NCBI RefSeq assembly: GCF_001598795.1
Contig: NZ_BCZP01000011.1
Span: 30,001 to 62,000, forward strand
Direction: 5' to 3'
DNA: 32,000 nt
Source: Delftia acidovorans NBRC 14950
GTDB lineage: Bacteria; Pseudomonadota; Gammaproteobacteria; Burkholderiales; Burkholderiaceae_C
This document shows positions 543 through 32,000 of the stretch, piece after piece. A program made the position numbers and the translations under genes. How positions within the stretch are numbered: position 1 is the first letter of the stretch; each line of letters opens with the position of its first letter. Under the pieces are notes generated by a model that saw nothing but the letters and a program-made list of their open reading frames with translations, was not told the DNA's origin and made no database searches.

Positions 543-2147
543 TCAGCCTTCGGCTTTTCCGTAGAGGCGCTCGGCCGGGATGCCCAGATCCTCGCAGGCG
601 GCCAGCAGGGAGCGCACGGAGCGCATGGCGGCCGACTCCGGGTCGAACTCGATGCTGGTGATAAACGACAGCCACGGCTCCAGCCCCAGTGCATAGACGA
701 AGACCTGCTCGCACTGCAGCATGCGCAGCAGGCCCATGGCGCGGCGGTAGTCCGAGCCGTCGAGCCGGCGCGACTGGTCGCGTGCGCGGTCCAGCGGTGT
801 CGGCAGCAGCGGACCGTACAGCCAGCTCAGGGGCGCGCCCTCGCACTCCATGCCGATGAACAGGGCCTGCAGCGAACCCACCACGGGGCGCAGGTGCTCG
901 TACAGGCGAGGCTCCAGATTGTTGGAGTCCGCCGCGAACAGCAGGCGGCTGCCGGCGGCATCCACCAGCCAGGCGGCCTTGGTGCGAATGTCCAGATCGG
1001 CATGCTCGCCCAGGAAAGGCAGGGCGGTGACCGTCAGGTCGCCCTCGCTGAAGACCTCCAGCGGGCCGATTTCCTGCACATCGGCAAAGCCCGCCGCCTG
1101 CAGTGCGAGCTTGAGCGAGGGGTCGGCAAGACTGCCTCCCCCGCCGGCTGGCACCAGAACCCGACCGATGCGCGAGCGCAGGGCCAGCAAGGTCTCCAGC
1201 TGCACATGGTCCTGGTGGTTGTGCGTCAGCGCCACGCAGTCGATGCGCTGCGGCAGGTCGGCCAGCGTGAAGCGCGGTGTCTGGCCCGCGCTGCCACCGG
1301 CAGGCACCAGGGGATCGATCAGCACGCTGCGCCCACCTGGCGTCTCGACCAGCACGCAGGCATGGCCGAAATACCGCCAGCGCGCGCTGCCCACCGGCGC
1401 CGTGTCCGCCAGGTCCCCACCGCGCCGGGCCGGTGGCGTGCCGGTCAGCAAAGCGTGGAAGCGGTCGGCCCGCGCGCCCTCCAGCCCGAGCGACTCGGCG
1501 ATGGCATCGAAGGGGCGCGGTGCGTGCCGCAGCGCTGCCAGCATGTCGTTGGCGGGGCTGGCATACGGAATCTGCAGGGCGACCGCCCCGTCACGTTCGA
1601 GCTGCGGCGTGCCCAGGGCAAAGGGCCGCACATCGCCGCCGCGCATCACCAGCGTGCTCTGAGCCGAGGTGTCATACAGCGGGCTGCGGTAGAGCAGCGC
1701 CTCGATCAGGCGCAGGTCCGGTGCGCCGGTCAGCGAGTACACGAGCTCCGCATAGCCGCGCACCGAATCGGGAAGGCGCGGATACAGCTGCGCCATCGAA
1801 TGCCCATCGGCCTGGGTCTTGAGCAACTCCCAGCACTGCCCCAGGTCGGCAGCAAACGACAACAGCCCGGCATGGCGCTGGCGCGTCTCGTCCAGCAGGG
1901 CCTGGATGTCCCCGCGGCGCTCGGCCGGCCAGTCCATGAAGGGGCCGCCGCGCATGGCGGCATTGGCCACGGCCTGGGCATGCAGCTCGGGCGCCTCCAG
2001 ATAGGACTCCATGATGCGCACGTAGCGGTTGGCCAGGTACAGGGCCGCCGTGGCGGGCGAAATCAGAAAGGACCAGGCATACCAGCCCGCGAACCGTGGC
2101 ACGGCCACCACGTCCTCGCGCAGATAAAGCGGTGTTGCGTCAGCCAT
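543..2147 (-). CDS. CmlA-like nonheme diiron beta-hydroxylase candidate (N-terminal domain plus MBL-fold domain; would be annotated MBL fold metallo-hydrolase)
   Basis: ORF track 543..2159. I prefer the ATG at 2147 (MADATPLYL...) because GAGGAG lies 5 nt upstream and ATGGCTGA overlaps the upstream TGA stop (2142-2140). HxHxDH motif THNHQDH is at 1206-1226. Length is about 534 aa, with an N-terminal domain of about 260 aa ahead of the MBL fold. It is the last gene of an NRPS operon, the context described for CmlA-family beta-hydroxylases acting on carrier-bound amino acids. Confidence 0.55.
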   Translation of the reverse strand: MADATPLYLREDVVAVPRFAGWYAWSFLISPATAALYLANRYVRIMESYLEAPELHAQAVANAAMRGGPFMDWPAERRGDIQALLDETRQRHAGLLSFAADLGQCWELLKTQADGHSMAQLYPRLPDSVRGYAELVYSLTGAPDLRLIEALLYRSPLYDTSAQSTLVMRGGDVRPFALGTPQLERDGAVALQIPYASPANDMLAALRHAPRPFDAIAESLGLEGARADRFHALLTGTPPARRGGDLADTAPVGSARWRYFGHACVLVETPGGRSVLIDPLVPAGGSAGQTPRFTLADLPQRIDCVALTHNHQDHVQLETLLALRSRIGRVLVPAGGGGSLADPSLKLALQAAGFADVQEIGPLEVFSEGDLTVTALPFLGEHADLDIRTKAAWLVDAAGSRLLFAADSNNLEPRLYEHLRPVVGSLQALFIGMECEGAPLSWLYGPLLPTPLDRARDQSRRLDGSDYRRAMGLLRMLQCEQVFVYALGLEPWLSFITSIEFDPESAAMRSVRSLLAACEDLGIPAERLYGKAEG

Positions 2148-5100
2148 GTGTCTCCTCAAGCCAATAGGTCAGCGGCCGGTCCTGGTCCAGCGTCTCCAGC
2201 AGGTGCGCCATGGACTCCAGCAGGGCGTCGGCCACGGCGGGAGCGACCTTGAGCGCGTCGTGCACCGCCAGCAGGCGAAAATCGTCGCCGGGCATGACTT
2301 CCAGGTTGAACGGGTGGTGCCAGGCGTCACGGATGTCCACATCGTGAAAAGCCAGGGCGGCGCTGTCGCTGCCCAACTCGCCCAGCGGGTAGTTCTGAAT
2401 GCGCAGCGCCGTGCCGAACAGGTCATCGGCAGCGGCCAGCCCGGCGGCCGATGCGATAGCCCGCGGCGCCAGCCAGGCATGACCAGACGCCTGCATGCGC
2501 CGGCGCTGCAACTGCTGGCAGGCGGCGGCAAAGCCCTGCGCCCGGTCGAGCCTCACGCGCAACGGCGGTGTGGCCAACATGGCGCCCACCATGGCCTCGG
2601 CACCCTCGAGTTCGGCGGGACGCAGGGCCGAGGTGACGCCAAAGGCCAGGTCGTCGCGCCCCATGTGCCGCGCCAGCACCAGCGCCCACGCCAGCAGGGC
2701 CACGCTGGGCACCGACAGGCGGTGGCGGCGGGCAAAGGCAGCCACGCTGGCGCCCGTCCCGGCTGCCAGCACCCGGTGCACCTGGCGGGAACGTCCGCTG
2801 GCCACGGCTGCCTCGGCAGCAGGCCAACGCGAGGGCGCCAGGCCCGCCAGTTCATTCTTCCAGAAGGCCTGCGCGCTGCCCGCATCCTGCGCATCCAGCC
2901 AGTCGAGGAAGCGCCGCACGTCGGGCGCTGGAGTGTCGGGCGCCGCCGCGCCGGGCAAGCGGCCCGCATAAACGGCCTGCACATCGGCCATCAAAATCGG
3001 CATCGACCAGCCATCGACCAGCAGGTGATGGTAGGTCCAGCAAAAGCGCCAGCCGCCGTCCGGCATGCGGGCGAGCGCAAAGCGCATCAGCGGGGCGCGG
3101 GCAAGATCGAAGCCGCGCGCCTGCTCGATCTCGCGCAGCGCATCGTATGCGACCTGTGCATCGGCGGGTGTCCAGGCAGACCAGTCCTCGGTGCGCCAGG
3201 GCGCGGCGGTGAGGCTGTCGTCCACATGCTGGCGCCCCGACCCGTCTGCTGCGTCCACAGAGAAACAGCCGCGCAGCGCCGCATGGCGAGCCACGGCGGC
3301 GTTCCAGGCAGCCATGAAAGCGGGCACGTCCAGCGTCGCAGGCAGGCTGGCCCCCAGTTGCACCACATAGGCGGACGATCCCGGGCAGGCCAGGGCGTGG
3401 GCCAGCATGGCGTCCTGCTGCGGCCCCAGGCCATGCGAGGGCAAGGCTGGCGCGCGCAAGGACGGGCTGGCCTGTGCGCCGCCTGCCTGTACAGAACCGG
3501 CTTGCCGCGCACTGGCCGCCGCGTGCACCAGCCAGGCCTGCATGTCGGCGGCCAGCGCCGCAATCCAGCCTTCCTCCAGGTCCCGGGGATCGTAGGTGAG
3601 ATCCAGCGCCAGCCGCCCGTCCGCCACCATGGCATTGACTTCCAGCGGGAAGGCACGCGGCGTGCTCGCCGCGAAGCCCGGGCCATCGCGCTCCGGCGCA
3701 GGGCGCAGGCCCTCGCCTTCGGGCCAGGCCGTATCCCATTGCCCCAGGTAGTTGAAGGCGATGCCGGGCGGGGCCTGCGCGGCCAGGGCCTGGCGCACGG
3801 CCGGCTCGGGCGAAAGCTGGCTGAGCACGCCGTAGCCGAAGCCGCGCCGCGGCATGGCGCGCAGAGCCTCACGCACGACCGCAAGAGCAGACAGCGCGGA
3901 CGGGCCCGCAGCGCCGTCCGCAGGCGGGGCATCGGGCAACGATCGAGGCAGGGGCAGTGCCAGGGGTGCCAGCGCCGTGAACCACCCCACGGTGGAGCCC
4001 ACCTCCAGGCCTTCAAGCACCACATCGCGGCCATGCGACTCCAGCGCCACACCGATGCAGCGGCCCTGGACGCGACCGGCCAGGGCCGAGGCCAGCGCCG
4101 CCAGCAGCAGCTCCTGCATGGAGGCGCCATGGACCCGTGGCGCCTCGCGCAGCAAGGCGCCAGTCTCGTCCACGGACAACTGCACGCCGAGGGTGACGGC
4201 TCCGCCCACCGTGGAGGCCGCCCCGGCGCCACGCGCCAGCGGCAGGCAGGCGTCGCCTGACTGGGCCAGCCAGTACGGCAGCTCGGCACGCGCCGACTGC
4301 GATGCGGCATGGCGCGACACGGCTGCCGCCCAATGGCTGAAGGACGCGCCAGGCGGCCTGGCAATGCGGCCAAGGCGGCAGGCCTCGGCCAGATCGTCCA
4401 GCAGCACGCGCCAGGACACGGCGTCGATGGCCAGGTGGTGCACGACCAGATGCAGGCGCGCCTGTGCCTGTGCATGAGTTGGCGCCTCCTCCTGGCCCGG
4501 GGGAAGGTACAGAGCCGCGTGCATCAGCGGGCCCGCCTGCAGGTCCAGCCGCTCCTGGTTGGCCACGGCGGCGGCCTGCAGCCGCTCGCGCCATGCGGCC
4601 GGCGTTTCGCCAGGCGGCGATGCCACCACCTGCAGCAGCGGGACCGCAGGCGGCACAAGGCCATCGGCCAGCGTCTGCACCCAGCCGCCGTCCTCGCGGC
4701 GATAGCGCAGGCGCAGCGCATCATGGCGCTGCAGCAGCAGCGCCAGCGCGGCCTGCAGCCGTTCGGGCGCGAGGTCGGCAGGCACGGTCAACAGAAAACT
4801 CTGGTTGTAGTGCTGGCGCTGCGGAGCGTCCAGCGCCAGGAACCAGCGCTGGATGGGCGTGAGCGGCACGCGGCCATCGCCTGCAACGTCCTCGGTGGCG
4901 CGGGGCTGCACCACCGGCCCTCCGTCCTGATCCAGCAGCGCCACGAGAGCAGCCACCGTCTGCGAGGCCGGGTCCATCAGCTGCGCCAGCGTGATGGCCA
5001 GCCCCTGCCGGTTGGCCCGCGCAACCACCTGGATGGCAAGAATGGAGTCCCCGCCCAGCTCGAAAAAGCTCTGGTGCGGCCCCACCTCGGCAACGCCCAG

Positions 5101-8100
5101 CACCTGGGACCAGACCGCCGCCAGCCGCGCGCAGGCGTCGCCTGCAGCGGCGTCGGCGGCAGGCGCTGGCGAAGACGGCCGCGCCGGCTGCGCCGCCAGT
5201 TGCCGGCCCAGTGCCTGGCGGTCGATCTTGCCGCTGTGGGTGAGCGGGAGCTGGTTCAGCTCCACGAAATAGGCGGGAACCATGTGCGCAGGCAGGCGGG
5301 CCGCCAGGTACGCGCGCAACGCCTCGGCGCCGACGGGGTTCGCGGCGCCCACGCAGGCCGTCAGCCGGTGGTCGGCCTCGCCGTGCGCAATGACCAGCAC
5401 CGCTGCGGCCTCCACGCCCGGGTGGGTGGCCAGCGCAGCCTCGATTTCGCCCAGCTCGATGCGCAGGCCGCGCAGCTTGATCTGGTGGTCGTTGCGGCCT
5501 GCAAAGTGCACGCGCCCATCGGCCAGGCGCCAGCCCCGGTCGCCCGTGCGGTACAGCCGCTCGCCGGGGTCGCCGAACGGATCCTGCACAAAGCTGGCCG
5601 CCGTCAGCCCGGGACGCCCCAGGTAGCCCCGCGCCAGCCCTGCACCGCCGATGTACAGCTCCCCCGGCGCCCCCGGGGGCAGCAGGCGCATGTCCTCGTC
5701 CAGCACATGCAGCTGCATGTTCGGCAGCGGCCGTCCAATGGGCAGCTGGTCGGCGCGTTGCACGCCCTCCTGCACGCTGACAGCCACCGAAGCCTCGGTC
5801 GGTCCATAGGCATTGAAAAAGCGCCGGCCCACCGACCACCGCAGCGCCAACTCCGGTGCACAGGCCTCGCCGGCCACCACCAGCAGGCGCAGCGCATCAA
5901 GCGAGGCCGCCTCCAGGGTGGAAAGCACCGTGGGCGGCAGTGTTGCGGCGGTGATGCCATGGCGCCGCACAAAGGCCTGCAGCTGTGGCCCGGCCCTTGC
6001 CATGTCCGGGGCAGGCACCAGCAGCGCCGCCCCATGGCGCCAGGCCATGGTCATCTCCCAGACGGAGGCGTCAAAGGACAGCGAGGCGAACTGCAGCACG
6101 CGATCGCTTCCATCCAGCGCGAACACGCGCTGCTGGGCATGGGCCAGGGCGCGCATGCCCGCCCGCGTATTGACCACGCCCTTGGGCGTGCCCGTGGAGC
6201 CGGACGTATAGATCACATAGGCCGAGGACGAGGCCTGCGGTTGGGCAAGCACAGTGGCCTCGGCAGCCTCGTCTGGCGACATGGTGCCGAATAACTGCTC
6301 CGGCGTGAGGCAGCGCAAACCCAGTTCCTCCGCCACGGGCAGCGCGGCATCGGCCAGCACCAGCACTGCGCCGCTGTCCTCCAGCATGAAGCGCTGGCGC
6401 TGCGCCGGCAGCGCAGGGTCGATGGGCACAAAGGCTGCGCCCGCGCGCAGGATTGCGGCAATTGCCGCCAGGCATACGGGAGAGCGGCCCAGGCACAGGG
6501 CCACACGGGTTTCTTGCCCTGCACCCAGGGCATACAGCGAGCAGGCCGCCTGGCTCGACAGCCTCGCCAGTTGCGCATAGTCCATGCGACCGTGCGGCCC
6601 TTCCAGGGCCGTGGCGCCGGGCGTGTGCTGCGCCCAGTGGTCGATCCAGTCCACCAGAAAGCGCTCGTCCATGGTCTCGGCAGGGCCGGTGCCGGCCTCC
6701 AGGGCATCGCGCGCCTGCTCGGGCGCGAGCTGCAGCAGCGAGCCCAGTGCCTGACCGGGCTGCGCCGCCATGGCGGCAAGCAGCGCATCGAGGTGCGACA
6801 GCAGGCGGCGCGCTGCCGCAGCCGGCACCTGCTCGCGGTCGCGGTGCAGTGCCAGGCGCCATCCATCCGTGCCTTGCATGCAGGCCAGGGTGAGCAGGAA
6901 GTTGGTGCGCTCATGGCTGGCGACTGCGGCCAGGCACAGACCACCGGCCTGCAGCGCATCGGGCGCAGGATAGTTCTGCACCAGAACCAGGGACTGGAAC
7001 AGATCGCAGCCTGGCTCCAGTTCCGAGGCCTGGCGGATTTCCGCCAGCGATGCGGCCGCATGCTGCTCGCGCTCCAGGTGGTCCCGCTGCAGCGCGGACA
7101 GCCACGAGAGCAGCGGCATGCCGGCAGCCACACGCACACGCGCCGGCACCGTGGCGATCAGCATGCCGACCATTTGCTCCACGTCAGCGATGTCGGGAGA
7201 GCGCCCCGACACGGTCACACCGAACACCAGGTCGCGGCTGCCGCTGTGGCACGACAGCAGCAGTGCCCAGGCGGCCTGCAGCACGATGCCGGGCGTGGCA
7301 CGCGCGGCGCGGGCCAGCGCGGCCAGGGCGCTGCTGGTGGCGGGCGGCAGCAGGCATTCGATCGGGTCCGGAGCCTCAGGCTCGACAGGCTCCCCGGCCT
7401 GGCGCAGAAAGGCCAGTGAGGTGGGCTCGTGCAGGCCCTGCAACGCCTGGCGCCAAAAGGCCTGGTCGGCCTGCACGTCGCGCCGCTGGTGCCAGCGCAC
7501 GCAGTCGGCGAAATCGGGCGCGCGCGGCAGCGCTGGCGTGCCATCGCCCAGGGCCTGGCCGTACAGGCGGAAGACCTCGTCCATCACCACAGAGACCGAC
7601 CACCCGTCCAGCAGCAGGTGGTGGGCGCTCCACAACAGCTCATGGCGGTCTTCTGCCGTGTGCAGCAGATGCAGGCGCATCAGGGGCGCGTGGCGCAGGT
7701 CGAAGCCCCGGGCCCGGTCCTGCGCCAGCAGTGCCGACAGGGCGGCATGCTGCGCGGCCGTATCCATGGTGCGCCAGTCGTCGTGCTGCCAGGGCAGCTC
7801 CACGTGGGCATGCACATGCTGCATGGCCTCGCCATCGTCCCAGTGGAAGCTGGTACGCAGCACGCCGTGGCGTGCCACCACAGCTTCCCAGGCACGGCGC
7901 AGCGCTGCCGGGTCCAGCGGACCCTGCAGGGTCAGTGTCAATTGATCGAAGTAGACCTGGTCATCGGGTGCACGCAGACTGTGGTAGAGCAGGCCGTGCT
8001 GCAGGGGCGTGAGCGCCAGCACGGCCACCGGAGCACGGCTGCGGGGAACGGCCTGCGGCACCTGCCCGGCCGGGGCAGCACATGCTCCACGGCCCTCACG

Positions 8101-11100
8101 CGCGGCGCTGGCGATCTCGGCCAGCACGGTCTTCACCTCATCCAGCCATTGGGCGATGCGCTCGCGGTTCGGCCCCCCTGCCGGAAAGCTCAGTTCCCCG
8201 CGCAGCCGGCCATTCCAGAGCCCCGCATTGAGCTCGATCACATGGCTGCGCGCCAGTCCGGGGGCCTGCGCAGGTCCCGCCGCCTCATCCACCGGAGCGA
8301 TGGTCTCGTCCCCGGCAGGGGCGCCGTCCATGCGGCCCAGGTAGTTCAGCAGCAGTTCCGGTTCAGGCAGCGCGGCCAGGCCGGCGCGCACGGCGCCGTC
8401 GGGCGAGCGGTAGCGCAGCAGCCCCAGCGCCAGTCCCTGCCATGCGGCGCCGCGCACCTGAGCGGCAACCTGCGCCACCACCGCCGCGGCATCGGCGGCG
8501 CCGTGAGCTGGCTCGATGCCCACGCGCTGCAGCGCCGTGAACCAACCGACGGTGCGAGACAGGTCCAGCTCCTCGAAGAGGTCGGCGCGTCCGTTGCGCT
8601 CCAGATCCAGCCGCCAGGGACCATCCACCCCCAGCCGCACGCCTGCCACAACCAGGGCGGCGAGCAAAGCCTCGTCCACGCGGGCGGCAAAGGCACGCGG
8701 CACCTCGTGGACCAGGGCCTGCGTCGTCTCCTCGTCCAGTTCGAAGGCCAGGGTCTGGGCCTGGCCCACGCAACCGGCTGGCGTCTGGGGAGGCAACACG
8801 GTCGCGCCCACCTGGCTGAACGCCTGTTGCAACGCCTGCGCCTGCGCAGCCGCCTCGGGCCCGGCGGCCAGCTCGCCCAACCGGTGCGACCAGCGCGCAT
8901 AGGAGCTGGTGGGCGCGGGCAGTCGCACGGGCTCGCCGCGCGACACTTGTGCGCAGGCCAGGGCCAGGTCTTCCAGCAGTACCGACCAGGAATAGGCATC
9001 CACCGCCAGGTGGTGAATGGCCAGCATCAGCCGGCCCGTGCCGGGCAGCAGCACGCCACGCACCATGCGGCCGGACGCCGGGTCCATGGCGCGCTGGGCC
9101 GCGGCAAAGGCTTCGGCCTGGCGCTGCTGTGCCTCTGCCGGTGCAAGGCCCTCCAGGCAGACCACGTCCAGCACAGGCCCGGGCGCCATGGGGGCAATAT
9201 CCAGCACGCCTTGTGCGTCCACCCGCAGGCGCAGCATCTCGTGGCATGCCACCACGCCCGCGAGCGCCCGCTCCAGCGCTTCGGCCGGCAACTGCGGGGG
9301 CACGCGCAGCACGGCCGCCTGGTTGTAGTGAGCGGCCCCTGCCCCTGCATGCTCCAGGAACCAGGCCTGGATGGGGGTCGGTGACAACGGTGCCCCGGCC
9401 TCCGCCACCGGTACCGTCGGCGCGGCCCGCGACCGCAGGGCGATCTCCCCGGCCAGGGCACGCACGGTCTGGGTGCGGAAGATGTCGCGCACCACCAGGT
9501 CCAGGCCCTGGCGGCGCGCACGCGAGACGATCTGCAGGCAGCGGATGGAGTCCACACCCAAGTCGAAGACGTTGTCGGTGACGCCCACCTGCGCAAGGTT
9601 CATCACCTCGGCAAAGAGCCTGGCCAGGGTGGCTTCCAGCGGGCTGCAAGGCTGGGCCGTGCCGTCCGCCACAGGCAGCTGCGGCGGCGACTGGAGGGCC
9701 AGCCCCGCCAGCGCGCGCCGGTCGATCTTGCCCGATGCCGTATGGGGCAGGCTCTCCAGCACGCGGCACACGGCAGGCACCATGTAGGGCGCAAGCCGCT
9801 CGGACAGCCAGCTGCGCAGCGCCGCCGCATCGGCCTGTCCCGCAACCACCGCGAGCAACACCGGCTGGCCTGCGCCATCGTGCGCCAGCACCACGGCAGC
9901 CTCGCGCACGCAGGGATGGGCCATGAGGGCGGCCTCCACTTCGGCGGGCTCGATGCGAAATCCCCGGATCTTCACCTGCGCATCGCGCCGGCCCAGGAAC
10001 TCCAGCGCACCGTCGGCACGCCGCCTCGCCAGGTCGCCGCTCCAATAGGCGCGCGCCCCGCCCAGTGCGGCGCAGGCGCGAAAAGCGGCCTGTGTGGCCT
10101 CGTCCTGTTGCAGATACCCCTGCGCCACACCACCGCCGCCGATGACGATTTCGCCGATGGCCCCGGCAGGCAAGGCCTGCCCGGCGCTGTCCACCACGGC
10201 CAGTTGCACGCCCTGCAGCGCATGGCCCAGAGGCAGGATCTCGGCCGCCAGAGGCAGCACGTCGTGCGCGGGGTCGAAGAACGCGGCCGAAATGGTGGCC
10301 TCCGTCGGGCCATAGCCGCTGAGCAGGGCCACAGGATGGCGGCACAGCGCCTGCCACTGGCGCAAGCTGCGCACGAAAACGCGGTCGCTGCCCGTGACCA
10401 CCAACCGCAGGGCGGGCGGAACAGCCGTGCCCGATGCATGCAGCATGCCCACCCACTCGTGCCAGAACGCGGACGGCAGATTGAGCACGGTCAGCCGCGC
10501 GCCTGCCACCTGGGCCTGGAAAGCCTCCAGGCTGTCAAGACTGTTCTGTGCCCGCAGCACCACGCAGGCACCGGAGGCCAGCGTGGGGAAGATCTCCTCG
10601 GCAGCCACATCGAAATCGGGTGCCGCGAACTGCAGCACGCGATCGGTCTCGCACAGGCCGAACTCACGCGCCACCGCCGCCGCATGGTGGGCCAGGTTGG
10701 CATGGCTCACGACCACGCCCTTCGGGGCGCCGGTCGATCCCGAGGTGAAGCAGACATAGGCCCGTTGCGCGGGGTCTGCGAGCCAGGGCTGCTGCGCGGC
10801 GCTGCCGGCAGGCTCTGCCACCAGGTCCGGCGCCAGGTCCGGCGCTACCAGCACCGTATGCGAAGGCCACTGCTCCGCCGCAGACGCGGTAATGACCAGG
10901 CGCACGCCGGCCGCCTCCATCATGGTCGCGCGCTGTGCCAGCGGCCTCGCCAGGCTGAGTACGGCATAGGCACAACCACAGCGCCAGGCCGCCAGCATGG
11001 CCACCGGCAAAGCCAGGCAGTTGCCCAGGCCCAGGCCGATCAGGTCGCCGGGCCTGGCACCCGCGCCGCGCAGTCGCCCGGCCAGTGCGTCGGCCTGGCA

Positions 11101-12770
11101 CACAAGCTCGCGCAGCGAAAGTGCCGCGCCATCCGCCTGCACGGCCATGCGCTGCGGCCAGCGATCGGCAGCGCGGGCTATCAGCGCGGGGACGGATGCC
11201 GGCGCAGCGCCCTCGGGCATGGCTGGTGCGGGAGCCACGGCGCAGGCCTGCGGGGCCAGCGCCAGCCGGGACAGTGCAAGGCCGCACGCCCACTGCCCCG
11301 CCACATGCGCAAACTGCGCGCACAGCGCAGCCACGGTGGCCGGGTCGAACAGGTCGGCGTCGTACTCCATGTCGCAGGCGAAGGCTTCGCCGTCCAGACG
11401 CGCCGACAGGTTCAGGTCCAGCTCTGGCGCCGCCGCTGGCACGGGCAGCGGCCGCACGGCCAGCCCCTGCATCGCCAGCACGGCTGCACCAGCGGTCTGC
11501 TGCACGAACATGGTCTGGAACAGGGGCGCACGGTTGAGCGCCCGCTCGGGCCGCACGGCCTGCACGATGCGCTCGAACGGCAGGTCCTGGTGCTCGAATG
11601 CCTGCAGGCAGGTGCGGCGAACGCGCTGCAGCAGCTCGGCAGGTTGGGGGTCGTCGCGCAGGTCGATGCGCAGCGGCAGGGTGTCGATGAAGAAACCGAC
11701 CAGTCCCTGCGTCTGCGGCGTGTCCCGGTGGGCCACCGGGCAGCCGATGACGACCTCGTCCTGGCCGGTCCAGCGCCCCAGCACGGCGGCATAGGCGGCC
11801 AACAGCGCCATGAAGGGCGTGACGCCTGCGCGTGCTGACGCCTCCTGCAGCGCCTGGGTGCCCTCCGGCGAGATGCGAAAGTGATGGTGGGCGCCACTGG
11901 CGCCGCGCTCTGCGGGCCGGGGCCTGTCCAGCGGCATCGCCAGCTGGGTGGGTGCGCCCTGCAGTTGCGACTGCCAGAAGGCCAGTTGCGGCGCCAGCCG
12001 CGCCTCATCCAGCGTGGCGCGCTGCCAGGCCGAGTAGTCTGGGTAGCGCAGGGGCAGCGGTTGCAGCGGCGACGGCAGGCCCTGGCAGGCCGCGTCATAC
12101 AGCTGGCCGAGTTCGGCCAGCAGCAGCCCCATGGACCAGAAATCCCCGGCAATGTGGTGCAGCGACAGGGCCAGCACGTGGCGCTGCGGCTCCAGTGCAA
12201 ACAGGCGCAGCCGCAAGGGGGGCGCCTGCGTCAGATCGAAGGGCTGGCGCGCCTGCTGCGCCATCAGGTCGGCCAGGCCCTGGGGTGAGGCATCGTCCAC
12301 GGACTCTGGCTGAAGGCGCACGGCCGTGGCAGCGCCGATGCGCAGCACCGGCTCGGCGGCCTCGTCCACGATGACGCTGCGCAGCAGCTCGTGGCGCTCC
12401 ACCAGCACCGTCAGCGCCTGCTGCAGGGCCTCAAGGTCCAAAGGGCCTTCGAGCTCGAAACAGGCGGCCATGATGAAGGCGCTGCCACCGCCCTCCAGCC
12501 GGTCCAGGAACCAGAGCCGGCGCTGGTTGAAGGACAGCGGCACGCGGTCGGGATCCACCTCTGCAGCAGCTCCTGCGGCCACTGGCGCGGGCCCGCTGCG
12601 TGACAGCAGGGCCAGCAGCTGCGGCTTGAGAGCGCGCAGCTCATCGCGCATCTGCCCGCCAATGGCACCTGCCGGGCCGCGCACTTTCAGATCGCCGCCC
12701 TCGACTTGCACGGTCACGCCCAGCTGCGCCAGGCGGGCCAGCAGATCGCTTGCCCTGTCGCTCGCACTCT

Positions 12771-12774
<4 letters not shown>
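2140..12774 (-). CDS. Non-ribosomal peptide synthetase, two modules: TubC-like docking domain-C-A-T-E-C-A-T-E-C (terminal condensation domain, no TE)
   Basis: ORF track 2140..12813. The preferred start is ATG 12774 (MKSASD...), which forms an ATGA overlap with the upstream stop and has GGAGGA 11 nt upstream. Motifs read from sequence, in order: HHIAGD 12142-12159; TSGSTG 10729-10746; carrier Ser (DLGVDS) 9547-9549. E domain 1: PIQAWF, HHLAVD 8998-9015. C domain: HHLLLD 7606-7623. A domain 2: TSGSTG 6190-6207, FDASVWE 6055-6075; carrier Ser (GGDS) 5044-5046. E domain 2: PIQRWF, HHLAID 4423-4440, FNYLGQ. Terminal C: HHLLVDGWS 3013-3030. Confidence 0.95.
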
Positions 12775-23830
<11,056 letters not shown>

Positions 23831-23834
<4 letters not shown>

Positions 23835-26800
23835 GGCAGCGCCTTGGTTGCTGCAGCGCCGTGGGCGGCCGCCTTTTGATCAGGGGTCATGCTTTCGATC
23901 TCGAACAGCCGGCCCGCAATGGCCAGCGTGATTCCCGGGCGGGATTCCAGCGCAATCACGCGCTGGCAAAAATCTGCCATGCAGGGGTGGCGCAACAGCT
24001 CGGCCATCGATATATCGACGCGAAACAGCTCCCGCGTGCGCGCCGCGATCTGCGCCGCCCCCAGCGAATTGCCGCCCAGCGAGAAGAAGTCGTCGTCCAC
24101 ACCACAGTCGGCCAGGCCCAGCGCCTTGCACCACAGGCGCACCATGTAGCGCTCGAACGCATTGCGTGGCGCTGCGCTGGATGCCATGCCCGCAGCCAGG
24201 CGCAAAAGGGCCGCGCGGTCCAGCTCCCCCCGGGCATCGGTGGGCAGGGATGCGACGTTCAGCACCGGCACGCTCACCGGCCGTCCACAGGCATCGTGCA
24301 GCCACCGATGCGGTGCGGACGGGTCACCGCTGCCGGCCACTTCATTCACTTGCTCCACTTGATCCACTTGATCCTCTTCGCCGGCACGGCGCGCGTCGAC
24401 TGCGGCGCCTTCACGCACCCAGACCAGCTCATCGGCACCGTAGATGGCGCCCTCGCGCACCGCGGCGTGACGGGGATGGCCGAGGTCCAGGCCCACGGTC
24501 ATGACAGGCTGCTCGCCGCGCACCGCCAATTCGAAGGCCTGCAGGCCCTGCGCCTCATCGATCGACAGATAGCCCGAGGCAGCGAACAGCGCCGGGTTCG
24601 ACACCTGGCGGCTCAGGCCGATGTCCCGCCACGCCGAAAAACCGAGGTAGCGGCAGCGGGCGCCACCGGCGCTGTGCGCCTGTCGCTCCACAAAGGCCAT
24701 CTGCCAGGCATCTCCCGCCGCATAGGCCGCCACGCGGCGCCCCCCCAGCAGGCCCATGACCGAGCCGGCCACCAGGAACAGGGCCCGGGGATCGTGGGCG
24801 ATCAGGGCGTGCAAATGGCGCGTTCCCTCGACCTTGGCGCGCTGCGCCCGGGCAAAGCATTGCTCTTCTTCCTCCGCACACAGGGCCAGGCGCGACTCGG
24901 CTGCCAGTTGCACCACGCCGGCCAGCGGCTGTCCGAAGTGCTGCTGCGCCTGGGCCACCGCGGCCTGCAGGGCGGCGGGGTCGGTGACATCGGCCTGCAC
25001 GTACAGGAGCGTCCCGCTGCGCGAAAGCAGTTCCAGTGGCTGCCGGCGCTCCACAGCAGGGGCACGGCCGACGATGAGCAGCCGGGCGCGGTACCGGCCG
25101 AGCAGGTGCCGGGCCAGCAAAAAGCCCACGCCCCCCAGCCCACCGGCCAGCAGGTACAGCCCCTGCTCCTGGAATCCCTGATGCCCTGCAGCATCGGGAA
25201 CCAGGGGCACCAGGGGCACCAGGGGCACCAGGCGCCGCACCCGCCGCACGCCGGCATGCCACAGCACCTCGGGCTCGCGCTGGCTGCAGCCCAGTTCCGC
25301 GCACAGCCCGGCGGCATCAAGAACGGCGGCATCGGCAGCGACACTGGCGTCGGCATCGGCAGCGACACCGGCGTCGCCCCAGGCGACATGGCGGCAGCGC
25401 AAGGCAGGCATTTCAGCCTCCAGACTGCGCAGTACCGCGCGCGCCATTGCCCGCTGGCCCTCGTCCTGAGCCGTACCTGCGCAGACCAGCAACCGGCCTG
25501 GCACATGCCCGCCGGGGGCGGCCAGCCAGCGGGCTGCCTGCAGCAGGCCAGGGGCCAGCGCCTGTTCACCGGCCAGCACCAGCACATCAGGCGCCCACTC
25601 GCGCAACGCGGCCACGGCGTCGGCCGGTGAGCCGGTATCGTCCAGCGCCATCCAGCGGTGACGGGGCTGCAGGGCCTGCAATTGCGCCAGCGCCTGGGCG
25701 CCGGCACCACACAGCGCCACAGTCAACGCATGCGCCTGCGCAGGCGCCATGGCCGGCAACGCATCGTGCTGGCGCGGGCGCCATACGGGCCGGGCAAACC
25801 AGGCAGGTATGGTGCCTGCACCGCCGATCAGGCAGGCGGCATCCTTGATTTCGCGATCAAAGGCCCCTGTCTCCACCAGGCGGCGCAGCTCCACGCGCTG
25901 CACCTTGCCGGCACCCGTGCGCGGCAGGCGCTCGGGCGGCACGGCAATGAAATGGTCCACGGCCAATCCCAGGTCCTGGCCCAGGCGCATGCGCAAGGCG
26001 CGCATGAGCGAACGGCGCAGTTGCGGCTCGCCAGCGCCCGGCGCGTGAAAGAACAGCACCAGTTGGTCGGTGGCCGCGCCGGCCGGGCGCACGCCGATGG
26101 CAGCCAGCCCCTGGCGGTCCAGGCCGGGCACGCGCGCAGCGGCCTCCTCGATCTCGGCGCTGTAGAAATTGGCACCGTTGACGATGATCATTTCCTTGAC
26201 GCGGCCCACGATGTGCAGCTCGCCCGAACGCAGGAACCCCATGTCGCCGGTCTGGAACCAACCGTTGCGCAGCGCCTCGGCCGTGAGGTCGGGCCGGCCG
26301 TGATAGCCCGAGAACACCGAGGGCCCGCTGAGTTCGACCCGCCCGATCTCACCCTCCATCAGGGTGCGGCCTGCATCGTCCACGATGCGCTGTGCACCGC
26401 CTGCGATCGGGTGGCCCAGGCTGGTCACCGCCTCGCCGGACGCTGTCCAGCAACGCAGCGAGAACGCAGAGACCGTCTCGGTCATGCCAAAGGACATCCA
26501 GACGGCGCCCTGCCTGAGCCCGTCCTGCGCAAAGCGGCGCTCGAAATCCACGAGGACCGGCTCCGATACCGGCTCCCCGGCGTTGATGAGCATGCGCAAA
26601 CAGGACAGGTCCCAATGGCCGGGGGCCTGGCCGCGGGCTGCACGCAGCAGCAGGTCGAATGCAAAGTTGGGCGCCCACACCGCTGCGACCCGGTGCTCGG
26701 CCACGAGGTCCAGCCAGCGCGCGGGAGCCTCGAGGATGGTGGCCGTATCCACCTGGACCTGGTCCAGGCCCAGCACCGTAGGCATCACGCACAGGAACAC

Positions 26801-27913
26801 CACGCCGCCCACATGGTCCAGCGGCATCCAGTTCAGCGCGGTCTCGCCGGGCGCGAAGCGCAGTTGCTGCTGCACGCCGCTGATCATGGCGGCCAGATTG
26901 CCGCGGCTCAGTACCACGCCCTTGGGCGTTCCGGTGCTGCCCGAAGTCAGCAGCATCAGTGCGGGCTGCCCCGGCCCGGCGCTGGCCGAGGGCTGCGCGG
27001 GCGCACCCGCCTGCAGTGCCTGGGCATCGAGCAGCTGCATGCCCTGCAGCGCTGCGGCATGGGGCCGCAAGCCGGCCAGGGCTGCCGCAGAGCCGACCAC
27101 GGGCGCCCTGCCCGCCACCTCCCAGCAGTTGAGCAACCGCTCCAGGCCGGCCCCCCCGGCCGCCGCCGGTCCCAGTGCCAGAGGCGCCGGCACCAGGCCG
27201 CCGAGCACACAGCCCCAGAACACGGGCAGCAGGTGACGACTGTCCCCGGCGTCCACGATGACGGTGTCACCCGCCTTCAGCCCCAGGGCCAGCAGCCCGC
27301 CCAGGGTGCGGCAGGCCTCGTCGAGCAGTTGCGCATAGCTGGTGCGGGACTGGGAAAGATCGGCAGCCACATGGACGATGCCCGCTCCGGGACGCGCAGC
27401 CGCGCGCACCAGCGCCTGCTCCAGCGCATATCCGACACCCGCGTCCGGCAGCGCAGGTGAATGGTGGACGGCAGGAATGCGCTCGTGCAAAGGCACCGCG
27501 CCGCGCCGCGCCGCAGGTGCGGGCGCCGGATCGCCCAGCAAGGGCCGGCCGGGCAGCAGATCGCACAGGTGCAGGTGGGAAGCCGGCTGCACGGCAGGCC
27601 GGGTGACCAGCGCGCTGCCCCATTGCTGCTGCGCGGCGTCGACCGCGCCCGGTGACCAGACTGGCAGTGCGGCCAGGGCGGCCTCGTCGATGGCGCCCAT
27701 GTCATCGAGCGGCAAGGCGCTGACCCGCACCACCGCATCGCCTGCGCCAGCCAGGGCAGCCTGCAGGGTATCGCGCTCTCCGCCCACCACGTAGGCGACC
27801 AGACCGTCGAACCCCGCAGCATTGCGCCGTGAAAGATGCACATCGGCGGCTCCCACCGCCATCAGGCGGGCTTTCAGACCGCCCGCTTCCGCCCCGCTGT
27901 CCGTACCCGCCAT
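23831..27913 (-). CDS. Loading subunit: adenylate-forming (FAAL/A-domain-like, ANL superfamily) domain - PKS-type ketoreductase (with structural subdomain) - peptidyl/acyl carrier protein
   Basis: ORF track 23831..27967 begins at a TTG. I prefer ATG 27913 (MAGTDSG...), which has GAAGGG about 9 nt upstream and sits downstream of the predicted promoter/TSS. Motifs: LTSGSTGTPKG 26930-26947; NWMPLDHVGG; IVNGANFYSAEIE; A10-like GAGKVQR with Lys codon 25904-25906; KR Rossmann AGGLGGVG 25124-25147 with K/S/Y candidates; carrier FFSLGGNS with Ser codon 24065-24067. Confidence 0.9.
24337..24381. repeat. Imperfect in-frame 9-bp tandem repeat (about 5 copies, CCACTTGAT-like) encoding EEDQVDQVEQVNEV between the KR and carrier region of the loading subunit
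   Basis: Plus strand reads ccacttcat tcacttgct ccacttgat ccacttgat cctcttcgc. Confidence 0.75.
25200..25235. repeat. In-frame 9-bp tandem repeat (ACCAGGGGC x3 plus one variant) encoding LVPLVPLVPLVP just upstream of the KR Rossmann fold
   Basis: Plus strand reads accaggggc accaggggc accaggggc accaggcgc. Confidence 0.85.
25327..25374. repeat. 24-bp tandem duplication (2 copies, one mismatch) encoding DAGVAADA/DASVAADA in the KR structural subdomain region
   Basis: cggcatcggcagcgacactggcgt (25327-25350) is followed directly by cggcatcggcagcgacaccggcgt (25351-25374). Confidence 0.85.
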
Positions 27914-27978
27914 CGATCCGATCCCTTCAAAGCTGTGGCTCCGACGCCGATTCACTGCCCTGCCCAAAGACCGGCCGG

Positions 27979-28007: not shown

Positions 28008-28102
28008 TGCAGCCATTCTCATTAAGAGAAGGTTCAATGGAAACATTGGCATGCCAACGCAAGAGAAACGCCGACAGCAAAGCCTGGCAAATTCAATTGA
28101 TT

Positions 28103-28122
28103 ATTGAAAATGGATTTTCAAT
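28103..28122. promoter_or_regulatory. Perfect inverted repeat ATTGAAAAT-GG-ATTTTCAAT (candidate regulator binding site upstream of the operon promoter)
   Basis: Read directly: attgaaaatggattttcaat, with 9-nt arms and a 2-nt spacer. It lies in the AT-rich block about 100 nt upstream of the -35. The adjacent TCAATTGA palindrome is at 28093-28100. Confidence 0.35.
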
Positions 28123-28139
28123 ATATTTTCACCGCATGT

Positions 28140-28161
28140 ATATCACTGAAATCAGTGATAT
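28140..28161. promoter_or_regulatory. Perfect inverted repeat ATATCACTGA-AA-TCAGTGATAT (candidate operator/activator site)
   Basis: Read directly: atatcactgaaatcagtgatat, with 10-nt arms and a 2-nt spacer, about 135-155 nt upstream of the -35. Confidence 0.35.
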
Positions 28162-28582: not shown

Positions 28583-28659
28583 TGGTAGGCGCGATTGGAC
28601 TCGAACCAACGACCCCCACCATGTCAAGGTGGTGCTCTAACCAGCTGAGCTACGCGCCT
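28583..28659 (-). tRNA. tRNA-Val (anticodon GAC), CCA encoded
   Basis: The reverse complement is AGGCGCGTAGCTCAGCTGGTTAGAGCACCACCTTGACATGGTGGGGGTCGTTGGTTCGAGTCCAATCGCGCCTACCA, 77 nt. It folds as a cloverleaf: 7-bp acceptor stem; D arm GCTC/GAGC; anticodon stem CCACC/GGTGG with loop TTGACAT; T arm GTTGG-TTCGAGT-CCAAT. It closely resembles the E. coli tRNA-Val(GAC) I recall. An extended -10-like TGCTATACT lies upstream at about 28679-28687. Confidence 0.95.
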
Positions 28660-31510: not shown

Positions 31511-32000
31511 CTATGCCTTGCTCAGCGCGGGAGCGCCCTTGGTCACCTGGCCTGCCATGCCGATGCGGTAGACCACGCCGGCAATGAACAGGCCGATGAA
31601 CCATGCGTAGTCATAGGCATGCTTGAAGAAATCACCCACGTTCGGGAATGCAGCGGGGAACGCCGCGTGCAGGAAGCCGGGCAGGTTGGGCGCCACGCCC
31701 AGGGCGAAGGCCGCCACGGCCACCCAGTTCCAGCCGTTGGAGTAGCGGTAGACGCCCTCTTCCCTGTACAGGTCTTCCACCACCAGCTGCTTTTTGCGCA
31801 CCAGAAAGTAGTCCACCATCAGAATGCCCGCGATCGGCCCCAGCAGGGCCGAGTAGCCGATCAGCCAGGTGAAGATGTAGCCCTCGGTCGATTCCAGGAT
31901 CTTCCAGGGCATCATCACGATGGCAATGGCCACCGTCATGTAGCCACCCACGCGGTAGCTGATCTTCTTGGGCGCCAGGGCGGAGAAGTCATAGGCCGGC
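31511..32000 (-). CDS. NCS1-family nucleobase/hydantoin/allantoin:cation symporter (C-terminal part; N-terminus lies beyond the window end)
   Basis: The track ORF 31511..31951 begins at an internal GTG. The frame stays open to position 31999 (hand translation PAYDFSALAPKKISYRVGGYMTV...). The protein is hydrophobic and TM-rich, with an NCS1-like C-terminus, and sits upstream of hydA in the same orientation. Confidence 0.75.
   Translation of the reverse strand, partial: PAYDFSALAPKKISYRVGGYMTVAIAIVMMPWKILESTEGYIFTWLIGYSALLGPIAGILMVDYFLVRKKQLVVEDLYREEGVYRYSNGWNWVAVAAFALGVAPNLPGFLHAAFPAAFPNVGDFFKHAYDYAWFIGLFIAGVVYRIGMAGQVTKGAPALSKA

Follow-up and report, generated by a model that had tools for sequence, protein, structure and literature searches.

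Within a 32,000-nt stretch of the Delftia acidovorans NBRC 14950 genome (assembly GCF_001598795.1, contig NZ_BCZP01000011.1, positions 30,001 to 62,000 of the forward strand; hereafter the window), one gene encodes a 1360-aa loading subunit, the loader, in which an adenylating domain is followed by a ketoreductase (KR) and a carrier protein (T or PCP). A sequence-only reading of this gene had noted motifs resembling those of fatty acyl-AMP ligases (FAAL) and proposed a FAAL-type domain fused to KR-T as a distinct solution for loading an oxo acid. The question is whether the locus encodes a new fusion or a known type of module, and which acid it would load. Our analysis indicates with high confidence that the loader is the initiation subunit of a kasumigamide-type hybrid in which a nonribosomal peptide synthetase (NRPS) is joined with a polyketide synthase (PKS), and a keto-acid-activating orthologue of KasA. 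As the kasA orthologue of Delftia, the gene was described already in 2016 and is not a new design. The homology, the order of the domains, the motifs and the identity of the cluster are shown here; from homology and the biochemistry of orthologues we infer the substrate, the KR activity and the pairing of two relic segments described below.

Among the sequences of the Protein Data Bank (PDB), the best match to the whole loader was chain A of 6ULW, StsA (phmmer, E 5e-126), aligned in three stretches spanning residues 115–1316. Canonical NRPS A domains reached at most 84 bits in this full-length search. The adenylating (ANL) domain of the loader scored 329 bits with the A-PCP structure of McyG (4R0M), 300 bits with StsA (6ULW/6ULX) and 162 bits with the best FAAL (3PBK). 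With NCBIfam models, the best matches bore FAAL or FACL names, but all were far under the curated cut-offs (240 against 600 for PRK09192, 158 against 775 for PRK05850, 111 against 975 for FadD32, and 113 against 1100 for FadD28); the amino-acid adenylation model TIGR01733 scored 130 against a cut-off of 317. The FAALs considered here (Escherichia coli 3PBK, olefin synthase 7R7E-G, and FadD32) have, like the loader, the ANL fold and act in loading, upstream of a carrier protein, but score about half as high (~160 vs. 300–330 bits) and carry a specific insertion which was not found in the loader in alignments to 3PBK and 7R7G. The loader runs from residue 341 to 349 (~7 residues) where 3PBK runs from 360 to 395 (~34), and from 323 to 340 (~16 residues) where 7R7G runs from 330 to 372 (~41); we take the unaligned segment of the two FAALs, by its position, to be this insertion.

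The FAAL-like motifs are indeed present in the loader, but they are not distinctive, since StsA carries WMPLDHIGG, IINGKNYHNYEIE, SSGKIER and FGMSE; the two proteins have WMPLDH[IV]GG, FGM[ST]E and GK[IV]xR in common. It is extremely unlikely that a true FAAL became fused independently to KR-T, apart from the known A-KR-T modules, and loads a 2- or 3-oxo fatty acid. The names of the best NCBIfam models and the position of FAAL structures as next neighbours after StsA and McyG are in its favor; the missed cut-offs, the missing insertion, the identical domain type and motifs of known keto-acid modules, and a published phylogeny in which keto acid ligases are set apart from fatty acyl ligases (PMC13643306) argue against it. 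The corrective value of this result is that FAAL-like motifs followed by KR-T are best taken to denote a keto-acid ligase loading module and not a new fusion. Such modules are often labelled CAL by antiSMASH.

Keto acid ligases (KAL) form a clade of the ANL superfamily apart from both fatty acyl ligases and canonical A domains, and are recognised by two features: the Asp235 position of canonical A domains is taken by a hydrophobic residue, and a Gly-Met motif is present, the backbone carbonyl of which touches the 2-keto group (PMC13643306, 2026). Conservation was read from an alignment of the loader with 120 homologues (121 sequences). The Asp235 position of the loader is occupied by V368 (PLDH-V-GG), in a column with Val in 119 of the 121 sequences and Ile in StsA. 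The pair G476-M477, aligned to FGMSE of StsA, is invariant in all 121, and so is K670, the A10 lysine of an active domain; the earlier description of a complete adenylating domain of non-NRPS type with an A10-like GAGKVQR was accurate. On scores and motifs, the adenylating domain is predicted to sit with the KALs and not with canonical A domains or FAALs. A Stachelhaus-type code was considered as a clue to the substrate and rejected: the code of the loader, VGVVIASSAK, is about the same in StsA and McyG, and since the ten positions are alike in the three proteins despite their differing substrates, it is uninformative for the loader.

Pfam did not match loader residues 1–156, 686–920 and 1141–1256 even at E 10, and the N terminus gave only a chance match to PDB sequences with phmmer, so that profile-profile comparison was needed to reveal what flanks the KAL and KR domains. 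The N-terminal segment (~100 aa) and the segment joining KR and carrier are degenerate relics of the A-domain subdomain Asub, both absent from the domain list of the sequence-only reading. In hhalign comparisons with canonical Asub (scores of the relics in Table 1), the own Asub of the adenylating domain gave a probability of 98.6% and a control, residues 690–915, gave 0.3%; the C-terminal relic compared with the N-terminal one gave 96.2%. The A10 lysine is replaced in both relics (Ala74 in the N-terminal and Glu1231 in the C-terminal one), which are, to judge from their sequences, catalytically dead. Across 42 stand-alone loaders used as a consensus set, L17, Y41, V62, G73 and L80 of the N-terminal relic are nearly invariant, and the consensus has a conserved N-terminal segment resembling the end of an A domain.

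The same arrangement is found in StsA, the PDB title of which reads 'Adenylation, ketoreductase, and pseudo Asub multidomain structure of a keto acid-selecting NRPS module' (6ULW). In this fold, the pseudo-Asub is attached to the KR, N-terminal elements complete it, and A and KR are intact (PMC13643306). By analogy, residues 9–82 and 1159–1239 of the loader most likely pack into a structural pseudo-Asub. A model of residues 161–1360, calculated by AlphaFold from the 42-sequence alignment, had a mean pLDDT of 84.3 and a pTM of 0.74. Foldseek placed four 6ULW chains on top (E ~1e-75, 1170–1183 aligned columns), with McyG and the StsA A domain next and FAALs after them; the TM-score to 6ULW was 0.44, because the relative domain positions differ. 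StsA (6ULW/6ULX/6ULY), a cereulide synthetase homologue of Bacillus stratosphericus, is the best match in both sequence and fold at full length, with ~24–30% identity and the same order, pseudo-Asub N-KAL-KR-pseudo-Asub C-T. The sequence-only reading had cited as precedents modules with the KR inserted inside a canonical A domain; StsA consists of an intact A domain and a KR flanked by a split pseudo-Asub, an architecture which supersedes that picture. For the loader itself, a canonical A domain split by the KR in its A8-A10 region was ruled out, as its ANL domain is complete with its own Asub and K670 and lacks Asp235. The architecture is thus that of a solved and widely distributed module type, to which StsA, CesA, AerA and KasA belong, with 409 related loci among species-representative genomes, and it has little weight as a discovery.

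The identity of the cluster is given by comparison with the kas genes. KasA (1381 aa, A-KR-PCP), KasB (3694 aa, C-A-PCP-C-A-PCP-KS-AT-KR-ACP), KasC (3560 aa, C-A-PCP-E-C-A-PCP-E-C), and the CmlA-like KasD (529 aa) were described together with homologous clusters in Delftia acidovorans CCUG 274B (dakasA-J, 70.6% G+C) and Herbaspirillum sp. CF444 (hkasA-H) (Nakashima et al. 2016, PLoS One 11:e0164468, PMC5061366). The corresponding genes of the window encode 1360, 3687, 3544 and 534 aa in the same domain orders, and the G+C content over the cluster in the window is ~72%. As in KasA, MakasA, DakasA and HkasA, an A-KR-PCP subunit of ~1360–1380 aa is followed by the same KasB- and KasC-type subunits and a CmlA-like hydroxylase. 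The window represents another Delftia strain than CCUG 274B, and its KasD is identical to the CCUG 274B protein EPD44751.1 at 533 of 534 positions. In Herbaspirillum sp. CF444 (locus L005), a loader with 45% identity is followed by a KasB-like open reading frame (ORF) with the specificity codes VDWTISLADK and DVSQIGAVTK. The position of the hydroxylase gene differs: it follows kasC in Delftia, whereas in 'Entotheonella' kasD is listed before kasA (PMC5061366, Table 1). The delftibactin clusters (del/dlc/dlp) were also considered and ruled out, as DelE/DelF with their DH-containing PKS and the TauD-type DelD come with neither an A-KR-T loader nor a CmlA-like enzyme.

Assays on Microcystis enzymes point to the substrate. 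MakasA-A1 is the A domain that selects phenylpyruvate; for the remaining four, the preferred substrates were beta-Ala, L-Trp, L-Arg and threo-phenylserine (PMC5061366), in agreement with the specificity codes from the window. Kasumigamide, for which an [M+H]+ ion was extracted at m/z 787.4, contains phenyllactic acid and 3-phenylserine, and D-Arg and D-erythro-phenylserine were confirmed by hydrolysis (PMC5061366). This structure, the assayed substrates and the single PKS module correspond to phenyllactyl, beta-Ala, a Trp-derived gamma-amino-beta-hydroxy acid, D-Arg, and D-erythro-phenylserine. By analogy, a chain of these units would be the expected product of the assembly line in the window. 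Kasumigamide or a congener from Delftia, an environmental and opportunistic human-associated genus, would be of modest interest. A speculation that the 2-hydroxy acid joined to beta-Ala acts as a pantothenate mimic was dropped after the kas identity had become clear.

Because McyG shares Val-235 and Gly-Met with the loader, these motifs are by themselves no proof that a keto acid is selected. McyG, the A-PCP loader of microcystin synthesis, is the closest solved adenylation domain by sequence (33% identity in Foldseek), but neither a KR nor a pseudo-Asub follows it, and it feeds a PKS. With such an A-T loader as the top-scoring PDB adenylation domain, one may suppose that the ANL domain of the loader activates a non-2-keto acid, either one of aryl or phenylpropanoid type, such as has been reported for McyG, or a 2-hydroxy acid formed beforehand, which would leave the KR with no substrate. 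We regard this as highly unlikely: the A-KR-pseudo-Asub-T layout matches the keto-acid module 6ULW throughout, the MakasA A domain is phenylpyruvate-selective and kasumigamide contains phenyllactate (PMC5061366), and AerA of aeruginosin synthesis, which has these three domains as well, loads phenylpyruvate or hydroxyphenylpyruvate according to its description (PMC10143770).

The reading as a KasA orthologue implies the following course of initiation. The KAL domain would adenylate a 2-keto acid, by orthology phenylpyruvate, and the acyl group would move to the phosphopantetheine on Ser1283. On the carrier, the NADPH-dependent KR would turn the 2-ketoacyl into a 2-hydroxyacyl thioester (D-phenyllactyl), and DakasB, the translation of which is coupled to that of the loader, would join it through its first C domain to beta-alanine, giving an N-terminal hydroxy-acid cap. 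Of the two kinds of starter suggested by the sequence-only reading, the loading and reduction of a 2-keto acid is supported, and a 3-oxo acid has no support. A comparable route is that of AerA, a stand-alone A-KR-T(ACP) protein which binds (hydroxy)phenylpyruvate, converts it by reduction into (hydroxy)phenyllactate and passes this to the next NRPS as an N-cap (PMC10143770). KasA was originally annotated from its resemblance to AerA (PMC5061366). AerA is likened to the loader here by description, and differs in being cyanobacterial and in its unrelated downstream pathway (Choi-containing tetrapeptides). Biochemistry exists for the KALs of StsA and Dol15D (PMC13643306). StsA selects 2-ketoisocaproate, and its hydroxy acid is esterified in a depsipeptide, whereas that of the loader would be an amide-linked N-terminal cap.

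The order proposed by the sequence-only reading, which placed a KR structural subdomain between the adenylating domain and the Rossmann KR, agrees with the order of all quoted motifs, and for adenylating domain, KR and carrier also with Pfam. Residues ~700–915 had no Pfam or hhalign match; in the AlphaFold model they show alternating beta/alpha elements, mostly at pLDDT 80–90, and lie inside a Foldseek alignment of 1177 columns to 6ULW, which fits a KR structural subdomain. The catalytic part retains G924–G930 (GGLGGVG), R950, K1027, S1051 and Y1064. An absence of the catalytic residues, by which the sequence-only reading would have been refuted, was thus not observed.

Several observations weigh against the KasA-type reading as a whole. 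Five residues of the loader depart from those kept in at least 80% of the 121 homologues: P473M, beside Gly-Met; H1002Q in the HxAG motif, A1067G and N1068D in the KR; and T1311C in the carrier. The Asp at 1068, four positions after the catalytic Tyr (Tyr+4), occurs in 2 of the 121 sequences, the loader and its orthologue from Delftia tsuruhatensis, whereas StsA has Asn. Compared with the D. tsuruhatensis gene, the numbers of synonymous and nonsynonymous codon differences were 25 and 4 in the KAL domain, 13 and 14 in the structural part of the KR, and 6 and 5 in the catalytic KR; the constraint on the KR looks weaker than that on the KAL domain but remains purifying, and few differences underlie this comparison. 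The specificity for phenylpyruvate is carried over, by analogy, from the orthologue MakasA. The N-terminal relic lies outside the AlphaFold model. Finally, the production of kasumigamide by Delftia was not confirmed (PMC5061366), and no later report of it was found among 15 of the 30 papers mentioning kasumigamide.

The KR substitutions could be taken to mean that the KAL domain loads a 2-keto acid and the KR is an impaired scaffold, so that the chain starts with a 2-oxoacyl (alpha-ketoamide) cap. The rare N1068D, the changes H1002Q and A1067G in otherwise highly conserved motifs, the weaker constraint on the KR, and the clear loss of the catalytic Lys in some relatives, by which KR decay is known to happen in this family, agree with such a proposal. 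Still, it is very unlikely: Lys1027, Ser1051, Tyr1064, the NADPH glycine motif and R950 are all intact, and the nonsynonymous to synonymous ratio in the KR remains under the neutral expectation. Moreover, Tyr+4 is H, Q, S or C in some homologues that keep Lys/Ser/Tyr, and Q1002 is also found, together with Asn at Tyr+4, in the nearest homologue outside Delftia. Because Tyr+4 is naturally variable and Q1002 recurs in this homologue, the KR of the loader is probably active. Since P473M, H1002Q, A1067G and N1068D affect usually invariant positions, Delftia might make a kasumigamide congener with an altered N-cap, 2-oxoacyl or another hydroxy acid, instead of D-phenyllactate, which we consider unlikely.

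Loss of the catalytic Lys was seen in the stand-alone A-KR-T loaders P0023, P0024 and P0026–P0028 (loci L011, L019 and L021; Tistlia/Rhodospirillaceae/Alphaproteobacteria), where it is replaced by Arg or Ala; in some of them Ser is also replaced by Thr and the Asn at Tyr+4 is gone. Loaders of this type lie upstream of shorter NRPS genes, which likewise open with a beta-Ala-type A domain. These Lys-less loaders may be KR-dead and deliver 2-oxoacyl starters.

Table 1. Features of the loader and of the assembly-line genes downstream of it (window coordinates; residue numbers refer to the loader).
Feature	Position	Strand	Details
dakasA-type loading subunit gene	23831..27913	-	1360 aa; pseudo-Asub N part-KAL-KR-pseudo-Asub C part-T-putative docking tail; ORF, translation, Pfam, 6ULW match
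N-terminal Asub relic (predicted pseudo-Asub N part)	27668..27889	-	residues 9-82; hhalign vs. canonical Asub 99.1%, E 1.5e-18, 83 columns
Keto-acid-ligase-type adenylating domain (Acore + own intact Asub)	25844..27418	-	residues 166-690; V368, G476-M477, K670
Putative KR structural subdomain	25169..25816	-	residues ~700-915; AlphaFold beta/alpha fold, within 6ULW alignment
Catalytic KR	24464..25168	-	residues 916-1150; Pfam KR E 2e-30; aligned to StsA KR
C-terminal Asub relic (predicted pseudo-Asub C part)	24197..24439	-	residues 1159-1239; hhalign vs. canonical Asub 96.4%, E 1.1e-9
Carrier (T/PCP)	23957..24145	-	residues 1257-1319; phosphopantetheine attachment at Ser1283; Pfam PP-binding E 1.2e-12
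Conserved C-terminal tail	23834..23956	-	residues 1320-1360; ESxPGIT...IExMTPxQKAA; consensus of 42 homologues
dakasB-type NRPS-PKS	12771..23834	-	3687 aa; C-A(beta-Ala)-T-C-A(Trp)-T-KS-AT-KR-ACP; Pfam on overlapping pieces
dakasC-type NRPS	2140..12775	-	3544 aa from ATG; TubC_N dock-C-A(Arg)-T-E-C-A(Phe/phenylserine)-T-E-C; Pfam on overlapping pieces
dakasD-type CmlA-like diiron beta-hydroxylase	543..2147	-	534 aa; Pfam CmlA_N E 1.4e-71

The loader gene starts with an ATG at 27913, preceded by a Shine-Dalgarno-like GAAGGGA; upstream of it, the open frame reaches as far as a TTG at 27967. At the other end, the stop codon of the loader gene and the start codon of the following gene share an ATGA (23831–23834). 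Pfam AMP-binding covers residues 183–538 (E 3.5e-49) and Pfam KR residues 918–1081; the motifs lie at 361–370 (NWMPLDHVGG), 584–589 (YSAEIE), 667–673 (GAGKVQR), 923–930 (AGGLGGVG), and 1276–1283 (FFSLGGNS). S1283 is kept in 119 of the 121 homologues, and the conserved C-terminal tail presumably serves to dock the subunit that follows. No exact match to the loader was present in the protein collection; the nearest orthologue, with 97% identity, is from D. tsuruhatensis NBRC 16741 (locus L001). An in-frame 9-nt tandem repeat, ctggtgccc x3 (25214–25240, minus strand), encodes residues 892–900 (LVPLVPLVP) in the linker joining the structural and catalytic parts of the KR; the D. tsuruhatensis orthologue has one copy, and the repeat number thus differs between strains.

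The A domains of DakasB have the specificity codes VDWVTSLADK and DVSQVGAVTK, and those of DakasC DVENVGGISK and DAWTVAAVAK; the codes were taken from an alignment to the PheA sequence. The two DakasB codes recur 3' of the loader in genomes of Oxalobacteraceae, Herbaspirillum, Burkholderia and Rhodospirillaceae; the beta-Ala code string had no match in a literature search. The 3544-aa call for DakasC is the same in an identical contig. At the DakasB-DakasC junction (12771–12775), start and stop overlap in ATGA, as they do between loader and DakasB. The C terminus of DakasB reads ...EEFTL, and a TubC_N-type docking domain opens DakasC; an EDFxL-like tail recurs in L011, L019 and L021. DakasC ends in a C domain (2140–3500) and has no integrated thioesterase; a C-terminal C domain was proposed to release the chain (PMC5061366). 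Beyond the window, identical Delftia contigs (L079–L082, 11829–17552) carry a DUF697 gene, a stand-alone type II thioesterase, an ABC ATPase, a Band_7 gene, and an Sfp-type phosphopantetheinyl transferase.

Upstream of the loader gene, in an intergenic region of low GC content, lie two perfect 10-2-10 palindromes, TATTGAAAATggATTTTCAATA (28102–28123) and ATATCACTGAaaTCAGTGATAT (28140–28161), 16 nt apart. The first is kept in D. tsuruhatensis (L001, 9791–9812) and the second is not; both are possible operator sites. A simple scan upstream of the loader found no sigma-70-like promoter. At the boundary of the cluster lies a tRNA-Val(GAC) gene (28583–28659, minus strand), which may mark the edge of an island. 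Past it, up to position 32000, follow genes for a carbamoylase-type amidohydrolase, a dihydropyrimidinase and an NCS1 permease, i.e., reductive pyrimidine catabolism, which yields beta-alanine. These genes adjoin an assembly line that takes up beta-alanine as its first amino acid, probably by coincidence, because the Herbaspirillum locus L003 carries other upstream ORFs.

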